A stretch of 64,000 bases of DNA, taken from positions 1 through 64,000 of the IMG/VR virus record IMGVR_UViG_3300033076_000210, one strand, 5' to 3'. The DNA comes from a virus (taxonomy: Duplodnaviria > Caudoviricetes). The notes beneath the pieces are model-generated. The model worked only from the letters and a program-made list of their open reading frames with translations, did not search any database and had not been told where the DNA came from. The translations under genes and the position numbers were made by a program. Shown in pieces: positions 3,769 to 35,852 of the stretch; the stretch's first letter is position 1, and each line of letters begins with the position of its first letter.

Positions 3769-3797
3769 ATTATAGCAAAACGGTAAATTTTGGTCAA
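3769..3797 (-). promoter_or_regulatory. sigma70-type early promoter TTGACC-N17-TATAAT
   Basis: Consensus, 17-nt spacer, extended -10. Confidence 0.85.
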
Positions 3798-4135: not shown

Positions 4136-4164
4136 ATTATAACCGAAATTGCATTTTCGGTCAA
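4136..4164 (-). promoter_or_regulatory. sigma70-type early promoter TTGACC-N17-TATAAT (leaderless transcript)
   Basis: Consensus; ATG 6 nt after the -10 box. Confidence 0.85.
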
Positions 4165-31126: not shown

Positions 31127-32592
31127 TTGACTTTCATCCACTCAAGTTTTTCTTGTGTGAATGGGTAGTTGGCTTCTCGATAAAATGCTTTGCGCTTGGT
31201 TAAATGTCGTTTGGCAAATTTACATGTTGATGTCAAGTCCCAGATTTCCACATGGTCTTTATCTTCTGCTTTACGAATTCCACGACCGATTGACTGAATA
31301 ACTCTAACAAAACTCTTGCCAGGCTCCACAAGAACAAGATTAAAAATACGGGGGATATTAATACCAACAGCAGCCACTCCATAAGTGGCCACAATAATTT
31401 TGTCACTCGATTCAGCAACTTCTGCATACTCTGCTTTCCTTGTTTTTCCTTTGGTTGCACCAGATACAAACACAGCACGCTCTCCTAATCGGCTCACAAG
31501 TTCTTGACCCGCAGACACTCTATCCACAAGCACTAATGTGTTACCAGTTTCGTTTACTTTGCGTATTAGCTCGGCCATTGTATCTAATCGTCCCGATTCT
31601 TCTAATAGATACTTTAGTTCACTTTGATAATTTGAATACTCAACGTGATCCTGTAGTTGAACAATGTTCACATGACACTGTGCTAAAACACCCTGTTGTT
31701 GCAATTCATTTGCCGATAGCTTGCCTACCACAGGACCAAGACTGACTAACAGTGCCTGGCTTTCAAACTTTTCTTTAGGTACAGTTCCAGTAAGTCCCCA
31801 ACGCAATGGGATCTTGGCCATAACTCCAGTGAGCAGAGTTTTAAGAGCTTCTGCTTTGGCCATATGCACTTCGTCTACAATAACGCATACAACGTCTTCA
31901 ATGAAATCCATGATTGTAAAGTCGGCGATGCCTGTGTTAGTATTTTTTAGCAATACATTTAAACTTTGCCACGTACAGATGGTATGTGTCTTGCCAAACT
32001 CTTTACGATCTCCATAAAACACACCAACATCAAGCCCAAGGTTAACATAATCTGCTTCTGTTTGTTCCACAAGACTTTTATTAGGAACAATAACAATACT
32101 ACGACCGTAAGGCTCAATTTTTGAACTCAAGGCGGCGGTCATAATTGTTTTGCCTGCGCCTGTAGCAACTTCCTGAATGCATTGGGGATTTTCTAAAAAG
32201 TTGTTGATAATTTCTTCTTGGTAGTCACGTAATACAATTGGCTGACCCACTGCTGGATGGCCTTTGGGCCACACTTTGTGAGCAAACGTAGTTTCTTCCA
32301 CTGGAGTAAAATCAAATGCTACAGAGTAGTCACGCTGATCATCAAGTTCAATGTCGTAATTAAACTTTTCCAGTATAGGAATAATTTCCGGCAATAGATT
32401 TGTATAAGTGCTACCACCAAGTTGAAAGTATGCTACCTTGCCATCCCAGCGACCAAGTCGAACTGCTGGCATGTAACGTGCTGCTGGGTTTTCATATTTA
32501 AATGCGTTAACAAGAGACTTGCGAGCATCTAAATCGAGCCCTTCAATCTTAATGTTAACTTCGTCTTTGATTACTATCGTTGCTGTTTTCAT
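31123..32592 (-). CDS. uvsW: UvsW-like SF2 DNA helicase
   Basis: WDGK, LRDYQ, ATGAGKT, DEVH, GLTGT, QSIGRG.R. Confidence 0.92.
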   Translation of the reverse strand: MKTATIVIKDEVNIKIEGLDLDARKSLVNAFKYENPAARYMPAVRLGRWDGKVAYFQLGGSTYTNLLPEIIPILEKFNYDIELDDQRDYSVAFDFTPVEETTFAHKVWPKGHPAVGQPIVLRDYQEEIINNFLENPQCIQEVATGAGKTIMTAALSSKIEPYGRSIVIVPNKSLVEQTEADYVNLGLDVGVFYGDRKEFGKTHTICTWQSLNVLLKNTNTGIADFTIMDFIEDVVCVIVDEVHMAKAEALKTLLTGVMAKIPLRWGLTGTVPKEKFESQALLVSLGPVVGKLSANELQQQGVLAQCHVNIVQLQDHVEYSNYQSELKYLLEESGRLDTMAELIRKVNETGNTLVLVDRVSAGQELVSRLGERAVFVSGATKGKTRKAEYAEVAESSDKIIVATYGVAAVGINIPRIFNLVLVEPGKSFVRVIQSIGRGIRKAEDKDHVEIWDLTSTCKFAKRHLTKRKAFYREANYPFTQEKLEWMKVK

Positions 32593-33443
32593 TGTATTTC
32601 TACCCGACTAACCCATTGCCGAGTTGCTATTTCTTGTAAAAGAGTTTCTCTGCTGCCTGTGTAAATTAAATCAGCAACAGGAAATCGTAATGGTTGTGCC
32701 TTTGCATTATACACGCTGGTAATGTTTTTTGCAAGAAAAAACTCTTGATGTTCATCAATATAACGTTGTATTCGTCCGTATTTTTCACTTAGATTGCGTT
32801 CACGGAACTGTACATTAAAATCGGCGCTGTAATGACTAAAGGGGCGGAATGCATCGTCGGAAATATACTCATCGTTGTCCTGTTCAAGATCCTCAACAGT
32901 CTTGCCTATTTCGCAATAGTTTAGATAAACAGTTCCAAACTCAATTTGCCAAGTACCGTATGTGCTTTGTAACTGTTCCGATAGTCGATGTGTTTTAGGC
33001 ATGCCATACCATGTGCATACAAAGCGAGGACTGAGAGGTTGCATTGCGGTTTCGCATCTATGAACTGCTATGTTTAATTCCGCAATAGCACGCCTAGCAG
33101 TCTCGTCGGCGGTTTGCCAATATTCCGATGTTTGCTGATCCAACAGCCCGTGATGAATCTCAAATATGTTGTGCAAATAATTCAAACAGTCTTGGGTCCA
33201 CTCAAACGGTCTGGTAATTAGAGGGCGATGTGCATTTATTGTATCAATGCATTGCTTGATGAAAACTTCAGCGCGGTGTTGCTCTTGTTCAAGGGTGTCG
33301 AAGCCATAAAATCTGTCAGGATGATCAAGTGGCCAGCTGTCTTTTTGTTGCATGCGTTCTCGCCAAAGGTCTGCAACAGGAGTTTTTCTTATTTGGAATT
33401 CAAGTGTTAAAGGATCAGTAGTTCCTAATGTAATAGAAAGCAT
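32589..33443 (-). CDS. hypothetical phage protein
   Basis: LNYLH.IFE and LN.AVH.CE repeats, Y.E.GK motif. Confidence 0.75.
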   Translation of the reverse strand: MLSITLGTTDPLTLEFQIRKTPVADLWRERMQQKDSWPLDHPDRFYGFDTLEQEQHRAEVFIKQCIDTINAHRPLITRPFEWTQDCLNYLHNIFEIHHGLLDQQTSEYWQTADETARRAIAELNIAVHRCETAMQPLSPRFVCTWYGMPKTHRLSEQLQSTYGTWQIEFGTVYLNYCEIGKTVEDLEQDNDEYISDDAFRPFSHYSADFNVQFRERNLSEKYGRIQRYIDEHQEFFLAKNITSVYNAKAQPLRFPVADLIYTGSRETLLQEIATRQWVSRVEIQ

Positions 33444-33449
33444 CGTAGT

Positions 33450-33478
33450 AGTATATACTTACCACAACAAAAAGTCAA
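33450..33478 (-). promoter_or_regulatory. sigma70-type promoter TTGACT-N17-TATACT (leaderless)
   Basis: 17-nt spacer; ATG 6 nt after -10; -35 overlaps the terminator U tract. Confidence 0.75.
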
Positions 33479-33503
33479 AAAAACAGGCTCCAAAGAGCCT
33501 GTT
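33477..33503 (-). terminator. intrinsic terminator
   Basis: aacaggctc-tttg-gagcctgtt followed by U tract on the minus strand. Confidence 0.85.
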
Positions 33504-33508
33504 GTAAA

Positions 33509-33528
33509 TGAACCGTTTTCACGATTCA
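33509..33528 (-). other. RNA hairpin with GAAA tetraloop in 3' UTR
   Basis: ugaaucgu-GAAA-acgguuca, 8-bp stem with one G-U pair. Confidence 0.6.
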
Positions 33529-33546
33529 GGAGCTAACCAAAACACC

Positions 33547-33696
33547 TCAAACAATCAAATCCATTGCGGCTGCAAAGTTTGCCGCACTTATAACAAGGGC
33601 GGCCCAGCCAATCCCGTTTCTTTCTGCTTCAAAATGATCTTTGGCCTGTTCCCACAACCACCAAGCAAAGAACAAGTTAAGAAAAAGAGCCAACAT
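33547..33696 (-). CDS. small membrane protein (49 aa)
   Basis: Two hydrophobic segments; TAATG overlap; start moved to MLALFLN. Confidence 0.6.
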   Translation of the reverse strand: MLALFLNLFFAWWLWEQAKDHFEAERNGIGWAALVISAANFAAAMDLIV

Positions 33697-33800
33697 TACA
33701 GTATCGCAATCAAAAAAATCAAAAATGCCCAACCAGGATTGCCGGTCATCAGTGCAAACAGTGCCAGTATAGTTCCAAAGAATGCCCGATCACTGCCCAT
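33696..33800 (-). CDS. small membrane protein (34 aa)
   Basis: MGSDRAFFGTILALFALMTGNPGWAFLIFLIAIL; AGGAG RBS. Confidence 0.6.
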   Translation of the reverse strand: MGSDRAFFGTILALFALMTGNPGWAFLIFLIAIL

Positions 33801-34047
33801 GAATTTTCAACTCCTGTGAGCATCGAACACCCTTGCCAAATTCATCAAGTATCTGACGAGTGCTGTCCTGTGTAATAACAAACTTGTAACCTTCGATACA
33901 ACGACTTTCAGTTACTCCATTGATACCAATACTGATGTTGCTGTTGCCAGACATTGAGGTTCCTGCACCTACAATGACCATAACAAAAATCGCAAAGATC
34001 ACAATAGCAACCATCAGTTCAATTAAAGTAAATCCACGTTGTTTCAT
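33790..34047 (-). CDS. type IV pilin-like peptide (class III signal peptide)
   Basis: MKQRG/FTLIELMVAIVIFAIFV prepilin-peptidase cleavage/N-methylation motif; C-terminal Cys pair. Confidence 0.8.
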   Translation of the reverse strand: MKQRGFTLIELMVAIVIFAIFVMVIVGAGTSMSGNSNISIGINGVTESRCIEGYKFVITQDSTRQILDEFGKGVRCSQELKIHGQ

Positions 34048-34102
34048 TGTTGTTCCTTATCGGAGGGGTCTTATTGACATTGCCCCTACGCACACTGCGG
34101 GG

Positions 34103-34258
34103 TTAACCTTCTTCTATTTCGTCTGCGATATCTGCTACTGTGTTGGCAACATCTTGCAACTCGCCTGACACATCGTCGTATTCGGCACGGCTGTTGACTA
34201 CTTCTTGAATTAAAGCATGAGCCTGGGCCAGCTTGGTAATTTGTTCGTATTTGTCCAT
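34103..34258 (-). CDS. small acidic hypothetical protein
   Basis: Start moved to MDKYEQI. Confidence 0.6.
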   Translation of the reverse strand: MDKYEQITKLAQAHALIQEVVNSRAEYDDVSGELQDVANTVADIADEIEEG

Positions 34259-34262
34259 GATA

Positions 34263-34421
34263 CTACCCGTTAAATCCAATTTGATCTTCAAACAATGCCA
34301 GCAAGTCTTCGTCGGTCATTAAGTCCAATTCAGACACCACATGCTCATCTTCGTTGCTGTCGATGATAATTTTACCATCAAACGAACACTCTTGCAATCG
34401 TTTAATAACTAGTTCACGCAC
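34263..34421 (-). CDS. small acidic hypothetical protein
   Basis: GTG start (MRELVIKR), GGAG RBS, overlaps the upstream stop. Confidence 0.55.
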   Translation of the reverse strand: MRELVIKRLQECSFDGKIIIDSNEDEHVVSELDLMTDEDLLALFEDQIGFNG

Positions 34422-34530
34422 CGTAATACTCCAATGACTTGATTGTAAACCCTGCTTCTTCTTGTTCATCTGCTTCGAATTTTGTATCAACAGAGTAAAG
34501 ATACAAATCACCATCCCAAATTTCAAACAT
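34414..34530 (-). CDS. small acidic hypothetical protein (38 aa)
   Basis: MFEIWDGDLYLYSVDTKFEADE...; AGGAG RBS; not in ORF track. Confidence 0.6.
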   Translation of the reverse strand: MFEIWDGDLYLYSVDTKFEADEQEEAGFTIKSLEYYGA

Positions 34531-34531
34531 A

Positions 34532-35560
34532 TTAAACTCCTTGTGGTTTCATGCAAGTTGTTTCTGCAAGACGCTTCCAGTTAGTAACTGACATCTTACG
34601 CAAGTCTGCAATCTTCAGCGCCATACGCAAACTCATTTCACGCAAACGTGTCTTGTTGGTGTCCATGAAGTCAATGATCTCGTCTTGCACACACTTATCA
34701 AAATCGTAGTTTGCAAACAATTCGCCGTCTGCGGCAATTTGCTTGATACGCAACACTTTGTCACGCATGGTGTCCAAGGTCAAGTCCAAGTAGTGGCAAC
34801 GACTTTGGAGAGCGTCCAAGTGATCGCGCAACTTTTGCGACTTCATGTTGTCAAACTTCAAGTTGGTAATGAAGATCACGGAGCCTTTGAACTCGAAGCT
34901 GTCAGGAATGCCTTCACGACGCAAAGTGCTTGACTCAGACAACCAGGAGATTTTGCGTTTCTTTCCGGAGTCCAAAGCTCCTTTGAGTAAGTTAAGCGAT
35001 ACGTCATCGAGCAAAATGCTATCGCAGTCATCGAAAACAACCACGCAATTCGTATCTGAATATTTGTATAGAGTTTGGTAAAGCCCGATCGGCGTCGCAC
35101 TACCCTTAACGACTTCGGCACGAAGTCGTTTACCCGCCAACTTATCAAATAGACATGCTTTGTCAATTTCTTGCTCCACACCAAATGATTTACCAACGCC
35201 CGGTGGGCCCGACACAATCATAGCACGAATGTCACCTGTAACTGACGCTTTGGTCATTTCATGCAGAATGTCAAAACGTTCACGAATACGGCTCATTGCT
35301 TCTTCGTCAGTTTCTTGGGGGCGAGCAGGTTGCTCGAGTTTGATTACATTGTCTTGTGCCATTGAACTAGTATACTCAACATCTTCGATGCTGTCAACAC
35401 GCACACGAATCGTATCTGGGCAGTTAGGGAAAGTGCCGTCATTGCGAACAGTGACATAGTTGCCTTTGGCACCTGTTTGAAAACCTGCTACCAGCGAAAA
35501 CACTTGATTAGCGACTACCTTGTTGCGATACTCGCCACGCACAATACGAACTGAACTCAT
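34532..35560 (-). CDS. AAA+ family ATPase
   Basis: SGPPGVGKS Walker A, VVFDDCD Walker B, IFITN sensor 1, ALQSR Arg finger. Confidence 0.88.
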   Translation of the reverse strand: MSSVRIVRGEYRNKVVANQVFSLVAGFQTGAKGNYVTVRNDGTFPNCPDTIRVRVDSIEDVEYTSSMAQDNVIKLEQPARPQETDEEAMSRIRERFDILHEMTKASVTGDIRAMIVSGPPGVGKSFGVEQEIDKACLFDKLAGKRLRAEVVKGSATPIGLYQTLYKYSDTNCVVVFDDCDSILLDDVSLNLLKGALDSGKKRKISWLSESSTLRREGIPDSFEFKGSVIFITNLKFDNMKSQKLRDHLDALQSRCHYLDLTLDTMRDKVLRIKQIAADGELFANYDFDKCVQDEIIDFMDTNKTRLREMSLRMALKIADLRKMSVTNWKRLAETTCMKPQGV

Positions 35561-35603
35561 TTTAGCTCCAAAAGTTAGGTTGTTGTTTTGTTGTTATGCG
35601 TAT

Positions 35604-35632
35604 ATTATAGCAAAACGGGATTTATTGGTCAA
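35604..35632 (-). promoter_or_regulatory. sigma70-type early promoter TTGACC-N17-TATAAT
   Basis: Consensus, extended -10. Confidence 0.85.
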
Positions 35633-35771
35633 CCGTCTCAACGGTTTCTTGTGTTTCTAGCACCTGTTGCGTAATTACAACACCACCGTATGCTGCCTGA
35701 AATTGCTCTGCTACTACTTGCAAGAAAAAAGTTAATACTTTACCGTTACGTGTAATCAGAGTGTATTTCAT
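35622..35771 (-). CDS. small hypothetical protein (49 aa)
   Basis: MKYTLITRNGKVLTFFLQVVAEQFQAAYGG...; AAGGA RBS behind an early promoter. Confidence 0.65.
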   Translation of the reverse strand: MKYTLITRNGKVLTFFLQVVAEQFQAAYGGVVITQQVLETQETVETVDQ

Positions 35772-35798: not shown

Positions 35799-35827
35799 AT
35801 TATAGCAAATTGGGAATTTTTGGTCAA
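35799..35827 (-). promoter_or_regulatory. sigma70-type early promoter TTGACC-N17-TATAAT
   Basis: 29/30 nt identical to 1741-1770. Confidence 0.85.
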
Positions 35828-35828
35828 G

Positions 35829-35852
35829 AAAAACCCTGCTATCAGCAGGGTT
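35829..35852 (-). terminator. intrinsic terminator
   Basis: aaccctgct-gat-agcagggtt plus U tract on the minus strand. Confidence 0.8.

Follow-up and report, generated by a model that had tools for sequence, protein, structure and literature searches.

A phage-borne family of mini-pilins with a conserved two-cysteine head and a possible role in early interference with host type IV filaments

Introduction

Besides serving as major phage receptors, type IV pili drive motility, DNA uptake and adhesion. In Pseudomonas aeruginosa, the Prophage FimU protein (P-FimU) of F10-like phages is built into the pilus and blocks tip-binding phages; PilA-like proteins also occur in four types of virulent phages, with truncated forms of ~60 residues in six Pseudomonas phages, and these PilA-like proteins have been proposed either to be incorporated without phage-binding sites or to inhibit assembly (Sztanko et al., Cell Rep 2026, PMC12952977). 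Tip of phage D3112 and Aqs1 of phage DMS3 inhibit the pilus assembly ATPase PilB and exclude competing phages (PMC13436744). Here we describe an 85-amino-acid (aa) pilin-like protein, the mini-pilin, together with the family to which it belongs; its gene lies at 33790..34047 on the minus strand of a 64,000-nucleotide (nt) stretch of phage DNA (the window), which is the first 64 kb of the 93.9-kb IMG/VR virus record IMGVR_UViG_3300033076_000210.

The record has a CheckV completeness of 28%, and relatives found via an ATPase gene of the same operon reach 340–374 kb, from which we take the source to be an uncultured, T4-related jumbo phage of ~350 kb. T4-like gene content in the window comprises an NrdC.10-type ATPase and a helicase, and rIIB, a T4-type RNA ligase and GroES/GroEL are found on related or other pilin-bearing contigs. 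A sequence-only reading of the window had proposed that the mini-pilin is a dominant-negative pilin that jams host pilus or type II secretion assembly or titrates the prepilin peptidase, possibly aided by small membrane proteins encoded beside it. The concept of pilin interference by phages is already published: we found one proven case, P-FimU, which supplies an experimental example of a phage pilin that protects against pilus-binding phages (PMC12952977), and a suggestion for the PilA-like proteins of virulent phages. We found no publication describing the mini-pilin family.

Results

A class III signal protein with a small conserved head

The mini-pilin begins with a 5-residue leader, MKQRG, followed by a cleavage site between Gly and Phe (MKQRG|FTLIE), Glu at position +5 and a hydrophobic helix. 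It scores 39.5 bits against the Pfam N_methyl model (PF07963; cut-off 21.2) and 36.4 bits against TIGR02532 (cut-off 16.3), and it shows several features of the type IV pilin/pseudopilin superfamily: a short basic leader ending in Gly-1, a hydrophobic residue at +1, Glu+5 within a hydrophobic helix and an N_methyl match above the cut-off. Judged from its sequence, the gene product is a genuine class III (prepilin) signal protein with Glu+5, as the sequence-only reading had held. Models for specific pilins and pseudopilins (the equivalogs GspG/H/I/J, ComGE/GF and PpdD) all stayed far below their NCBIfam cut-offs and matched the N-terminus only (for example, GspI 21.4 versus 44.35 and GspG 20.6 versus 88.85). 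The GspH model covered residues 3–36 only, at 23.1 versus a cut-off of 80, and full-length similarity to FimU was not found. Among solved structures, too, only the N-terminal helix matches, with type IVa major pilins giving the best values (E = 5e-10 to 3e-7) and GspG following at 6e-5.

Behind the helix lies a head of ~40 residues (38–76) with two invariant cysteines, C50 and C76. An AlphaFold2 model built from a diverse alignment of 77 sequences has a predicted local distance difference test score (pLDDT) of 83, compared with 64 for an earlier model from 31 close sequences; it places a helix at residues 8–33 and a four-stranded beta-meander at 37–65, with no alpha1-C segment. The modelled head fold had no match above noise in the PDB, in viral models or in 48,161 PDB representatives (Foldseek and VIA-align; best Z 3.8), and the head sequence matched nothing in the PDB and no named cluster of the ESM Atlas.

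The family is large. At E ≤ 0.001, 708 clusters at 90% identity match, and the best 120 of these are 81–120 aa long with 58–98% identity over nearly the full length. An exhaustive profile search of 1.84 billion representatives returned 143 clusters at 50% identity with E < 1e-10, and nearly all of the best 150 clusters listed at that identity span the head; ordinary pilins matching the helix only may be among the 555 clusters found at E < 1e-3. Gly-1 and Glu+5 are each present in 118 of the 120 close clusters, behind a leader of 5–6 residues, and the remaining helix is variable; retention of these two residues fits processing and docking with pilin subunits. The head, described in the sequence-only reading as almost absent, is small but is the best-conserved part of the family. 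Of the 21 columns that never vary in the close alignment, 18 fall within it; the two cysteines are present in all 77 diverse members, and the head consensus reads S-x-G-x-N-G-x-T-E-S-R-C-I-E-G-Y-K-F...R-Q-I-L-D-E-F-G-K-G-V-R-C.

A family seen only in phages, carried without assembly genes

All genomic contexts that we inspected, including 44 IMG/VR loci, are phage; they include contigs of 374 kb (with GroES/GroEL), 136 kb (with rIIB) and 270 kb (with a T4 RNA ligase) and a phage with a P22-type portal. The ESM Atlas clusters of the family are 92–100% viral. Two motifs of the head had no true match in 185,579 prokaryote species (one genome per species), a scan for which the diverse alignment was too variable; its lone match, L092, was rejected as spurious, being high-GC DNA without a pilin open reading frame (ORF). 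A head-only profile found nothing in 401 sampled Pseudomonadota genomes and recovered one copy in each of five phage positive controls. These searches point to a large mini-pilin family that is confined to phages and is mostly environmental.

A single cultured carrier was found among 50,697 phage records by tblastn with the window's pilin and a divergent member as queries, under a low-complexity filter that hides N-terminal matches. This is Synechococcus phage BUCT-ZZ01 (Kyanoviridae; host S. elongatus PCC 7942), whose 83-aa homologue, UTS52068.1, is annotated 'hypothetical protein'. Megablast of the operon DNA against the same 50,697 records gave nothing.

Three carriers with complete or near-complete genomes, of 374 kb and 331 kb and BUCT-ZZ01, each encode exactly one N_methyl protein, and they have neither a prepilin peptidase (PF01478) nor a platform protein (PF00482). 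The 93.9-kb record likewise has no PF01478 and no real match to the assembly ATPase family T2SSE (PF00437). Since the carriers have no peptidase or platform gene, processing and any assembly must use host proteins. Both the lack of pilus assembly genes and the dependence of this orphan gene on host peptidase and machinery had been anticipated from the window alone, and they hold across this wider set. We also rejected a pilus built by the phage itself, for which the peptidase, the platform and the T2SSE ATPase are all missing.

The pilin gene is accessory, being absent from two near-complete genomes related to the window's phage. Such patchiness, together with the placement of the gene in two different hot spots, is what would be seen if it were a hitch-hiker of no important function in a plastic early region. 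We consider this most improbable, because the motifs persist in ~150 or more clusters at 50% identity, with both cysteines invariant, and because each genome holds a single intact copy.

A possible entry into host type IV filaments, and the case for an independent head

The reading that we favour, though at somewhat short of an even chance, is that the mini-pilin enters the type IV filament pathway of the host and interferes with it or remodels it early in infection. Host RNA polymerase would transcribe the pilin gene straight after infection, the host prepilin peptidase (PilD) would cleave the product after Gly-1, and the mature protein would be held in the inner membrane, its head facing the periplasm and its two cysteines disulfide-bonded. 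Glu+5 and the helix would then dock into the host type IV filament machinery, either a pilus or a type II secretion pseudopilus. The filament would be capped or blocked, or the mini-pilin would be built in and alter the pilus as a receptor, and through this change of the cell surface pilus-dependent competitors or the phage's own progeny would fail to adsorb productively. Docking with pilin subunits or with the assembly platform is suggested by Glu+5, which is kept although neither anchoring nor cleavage needs it. The specific activity would be carried by the conserved head and not by the helix; a model in which the alpha-helix alone poisons the filament fails to predict family members that carry the head on a non-pilin anchor, and it is the head that is conserved.

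Several observations weigh against entry into the filament pathway. When the anchors of the best 150 clusters were classed by eye, ~100 had the canonical G-F-T-L-I-E, ~10 had lost Gly-1 with Glu+5 kept in most of them, and ~24 (~16%) carried the head behind a generic membrane anchor, a Sec-type signal peptide or a lipobox, so pilus entry does not appear to be universally required. Gly14 and Pro22, both characteristic of type IVa pilins that assemble, have been replaced in the window's own subfamily, and no fold link was found between the head and known pilin heads. Phages whose hosts are unrelated, a cyanobacterium on one side and those of the jumbo phages on the other, also share the conserved head, which would be odd if the head targeted a hypervariable host pilin. 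Finally, filament interference presupposes type IV pili in the host of the jumbo phage.

The exchange of anchors under the same head indicates that the head is a portable, conserved unit for which the pilin N-terminus is the commonest vehicle and not the sole one. The main alternative, built on this point, is a periplasmic effector that acts independently of pili, in which the prepilin signal is one of several interchangeable tethers holding the head at the periplasmic face of the inner membrane; the target of the head would be either some part of an incoming phage or a conserved component of the envelope. Such a protein would be functionally akin to Sp and Imm of T4 in superinfection exclusion or to RI in lysis timing. 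T4 Sp (spackle) and Imm are small early envelope proteins with a membrane anchor or signal and a periplasmic part. In addition to the swapped N-termini and the conserved head, this alternative accounts for ESM Atlas clusters that are still viral with N_methyl matches in 12% or 0% of their members, and it suits the invariant cysteine pair, which would be at home in a periplasmic domain. It also agrees with early expression, as for T4 imm and sp, and with the envelope proteins encoded nearby: two small hydrophobic proteins in the window (m34 and m49, described below) and, in 22–24 of 47 pilin loci, a Band_7 lipoprotein and a 58-aa protein with two transmembrane segments. It leaves unexplained why Glu+5, dispensable for anchoring and cleavage, persists in 118 of 120 close clusters and in most members without Gly-1, and why the helix of the wider family is still type IVa-like, retaining Gly14 (52%) and Pro22 (34%). 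Moreover, neither the sequence nor the fold resembles Sp, Imm or RI, none of which was among the PHROG matches. We judge a pilus-independent effector possible but unlikely.

A broader formulation, of which we are similarly doubtful, would be that phages have invented a portable, cysteine-paired periplasmic effector domain of 40 residues that acts on a conserved part of the filament machine or the envelope in diverse hosts, from cyanobacteria to those of freshwater jumbo phages; most members would be delivered through the host prepilin pathway, and others through ordinary anchors or signal peptides. If this were true, the domain would represent a broad-host class of early surface takeover or superinfection exclusion, distinct from phage copies of host pilins.

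Two members of the family are unusually long, P0227 (L091:3793-5346; 517 aa) and P0216 (406 aa). They share an N-terminal domain of 300–440 residues, which is followed by a canonical G-F-T-L-I-E and the family head, and could be read either as having an extraordinarily long leader or as uncleaved bitopic fusions. The gene for one of the two lies in a smaller phage, just 5' of the genes for the small terminase and the P22-type portal.

An early-type transcription unit

On the minus strand of the window, the mini-pilin gene belongs to a unit of eight genes behind two near-consensus sigma-70 promoters, with a terminator at its end; every operon element listed in the sequence-only reading (promoters, eight genes and closing terminator) was found there. 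The preceding unit is closed by an intrinsic terminator at 35832..35852 (9-bp stem with 5 GC pairs, then a T-run; minus strand). Promoter P1 (TTGACC-17-TATAAT; 35827->35799, minus strand) matches the consensus at 11 of 12 positions and has the TG of an extended -10 element. It precedes g49, an ORF for 49 aa (35622..35771, minus strand) that matched no Pfam or PHROG family. Promoter P2 (35632->35604, minus strand), with the same elements, spacing and TG and again 11 of 12 matches, overlaps the 3' end of g49. It is followed by the AAA/P-loop ATPase of 342 aa (34532..35560, minus strand) and three acidic proteins with isoelectric points of 4.1. These are s38 (38 aa; 34414..34530, minus strand), a 52-aa protein (34263..34421, minus strand) whose GTG start overlaps the s38 stop and is preceded by GGAG 7 nt upstream, and s51 (51 aa; 34103..34258, minus strand), which has homologues in L002-L007 and L082.

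Between s51 and the pilin gene lies a GC-rich spacer of 55 nt (34048..34102, minus strand) that contains a CCCCGCA...GGGG hairpin and the ribosome-binding site of the pilin gene. It stands out as the one long gap where the operon is otherwise overlapped, and may serve in processing or attenuation. The pilin gene is followed by two genes for hydrophobic proteins: m34 (34 aa; 33696..33800, minus strand; grand average of hydropathy 1.46), whose start overlaps the end of the pilin gene by 11 nt and which, from this arrangement, is translationally coupled to it; and m49 (49 aa; 33547..33696, minus strand; hydropathy 0.77), whose ATG overlaps the m34 stop by 1 nt. The unit is closed by an intrinsic terminator at 33482..33503 (minus strand; 9-bp stem with 5 GC pairs and a T-run). 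Directly past it is a further promoter-like site, TTGACT-17-TATACT (33478->33450, minus strand), and the downstream genes for a 284-aa protein and a helicase therefore form a separate unit.

The promoter sequence recurs within the window. TTGACC-N17-TATAAT occurs in five exact copies, all on the minus strand (1742-1770, 3769-3797, 4136-4164, 35604-35632 and 35799-35827), and a search that allowed one mismatch gave 6 matches versus 0.31 expected. The exact copies mostly read TTGACCAAAAAT...TTTGCTATAAT, and the motif is also found 5' of the ATPase gene in relatives. It looks like a conserved early-promoter family of the clade to which the window's phage belongs.

Beyond the window, ~32 of 46 other pilin loci have a near-consensus sigma-70 promoter 0.2–1.9 kb upstream on the same strand, and the T4 late motif TATAAATA was found in none of the 46 within 2.5 kb upstream. 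Early-type expression, which the sequence-only reading had assigned to the window's operon from P1 and P2, thus seems general across pilin loci. A role in lysis was considered and judged unlikely in view of the early-type promoters and of the absence of an upstream late motif from all 46 loci.

An early operon with two near-consensus promoters would also serve massive early synthesis of a prepilin, which could titrate PilD or clog membrane insertion and so cause a general envelope stress that is not specific to pili. Unprocessed prepilins are toxic in Synechocystis lacking PilD (PMC8546353), which lends this alternative some precedent. Overload of this kind would need neither a conserved head nor Glu+5, however, and both are strongly constrained; we regard it as very unlikely.

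Neighbouring genes and the two recurrent contexts

The ATPase is a full-length match to phrog_1250 (E = 5e-83, residues 1–338) with the Walker A motif GPPGVGKS. By tblastn it matches 1,307 cultured phages, and the corresponding gene is annotated nrdC.10 in T2, Bp7, IME08 and CC31, as a gene of unknown function. Its Pfam matches are weak and generic to AAA proteins. On these profile matches, the ATPase is assigned to the T4 NrdC.10 family; it is not a motor of the PilB/GspE type and is unrelated to pili.

We compared gene content in 80 related loci anchored on this ATPase. The interval between the ATPase and helicase genes varies from 302 to 3,302 bp; s38 was found in 67 of the 80 loci, m34 in 19, m49 in 15 and the pilin gene in one, and g49 was kept in 13 of the 80. 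This slot (window 32592-34532; counterparts in L002-L081) is a hot spot of gene turnover, in which the small genes are shuffled in order between relatives. The overlapping m34-m49 pair, which matched no PHROG or Pfam family, is kept as a unit in at least 13 relatives without the pilin, often directly after the ATPase, and the counts in the 80 loci imply that the pair usually occurs without it. Taken together, the operon is best described as a plastic T4-type early region with no fixed functional cassette.

Starting from the pilin, we compared 47 pilin-bearing loci, the window included, and found two recurrent contexts. In 16 of the 47, the NrdC.10 ATPase gene is directly upstream of the pilin gene, with m34 next in 7 and m49 next in 2 (the window and L081). 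In 24 of the 47, the order is a 58-aa protein with two transmembrane segments, a Band_7 (SPFH) lipoprotein, sometimes a 90-aa protein, the pilin and often an 87-aa protein. The Band_7 module, with its lipoprotein signal ...LATGC, occurs in 22–24 of the 47 loci (for example, L101:2866-4527 and L113:2750-4543), and the SPFH scaffold and the mini-pilin may be functionally linked. The window's 93.9-kb record has no Band_7 gene, though this is the commonest neighbour of the pilin elsewhere, and no phage-encoded partner common to all pilin loci emerged.

These comparisons bear on whether the AAA ATPase, the mini-pilin and the two small membrane proteins could form one machine, a minimal filament or secretion device. 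Direct adjacency of pilin and ATPase in 16 of 47 loci and the overlap of the pilin, m34 and m49 genes in the window would be expected of such a device. We find it highly improbable all the same: the ATPase is not of the T2SSE/PilB type, its family is present in 1,307 cultured phages with no member among the genes scanned beside the BUCT-ZZ01 pilin, 24 of the 47 pilin loci adjoin a Band_7 gene with the ATPase not nearby, and from the ATPase side the pilin appears in 1 of 80 loci, in a slot of such variable length. The suggestion that the small membrane proteins are helpers gained no support from the comparison: of the 47 pilin loci, 7 have m34 after the pilin and 2 have m49 there, and the pair is often found without a pilin. 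The ATPase, the acidic proteins and the small membrane proteins would accordingly be ordinary early-region neighbours and not obligate partners of the mini-pilin.

Discussion

The earlier interpretation of this operon is partly supported: it is plausible in outline and wrong in emphasis, since the head is not vestigial and the neighbouring genes are not evident partners. What our comparisons appear to add is the size of the family, its restriction to phages, a head for which no bacterial counterpart was found, the alternative anchors and the two recurrent contexts. Phage proteins that rewire type IV pili shape both competition between phages and the behaviour of their hosts, and the present family would extend this idea to a large, previously undescribed protein family from environmental phages in which the conserved part is a novel head and not the pilin helix. 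S. elongatus PCC 7942 is amenable to genetic work and undergoes natural transformation by means of its type IV pili. Because BUCT-ZZ01 carries a family member and infects this host, the proposed mechanism is directly testable.

Compared with known systems, the N-terminus of the mini-pilin most resembles type IVa major pilins (PilA/PilE) and the short PilA-N of Geobacter, with which it shares a basic leader ending in Gly, Phe at +1, Glu at +5 and an alpha1-N helix. Unlike type IVa pilins, it has no amphipathic alpha1-C, no alpha-beta roll of normal size and no linked assembly genes. With Sp and Imm of T4 it has in common that it would be a small, early-type envelope protein of a T4-type phage; those proteins have no class III signal, and no homology to them was detected. 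Tip and Aqs1 differ in being cytoplasmic proteins that bind PilB, whereas the mini-pilin is predicted to be a pilin look-alike of the membrane and periplasm.

The truncated PilA-like proteins are closer in kind, as short PilA-like proteins of non-temperate phages, and the mechanism suggested for them is the same idea that had been proposed for the window. By that description they consist of the N-terminal helix only, to which the mini-pilin adds a conserved, two-cysteine head of 40 residues. They form a set from six Pseudomonas phages, whereas the mini-pilin family comprises hundreds of mostly environmental clusters. Like P-FimU, the mini-pilin is a phage-encoded type IV pilin-like protein that would need the host pilus machinery. 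P-FimU, however, is homologous to a host minor pilin over its full length and is expressed from a prophage, whereas the mini-pilin has 85 residues, carries a head for which no bacterial counterpart was found, and is encoded in early operons of phages with lytic-looking gene content, among them T4-like jumbo phages and a T4-like cyanophage.

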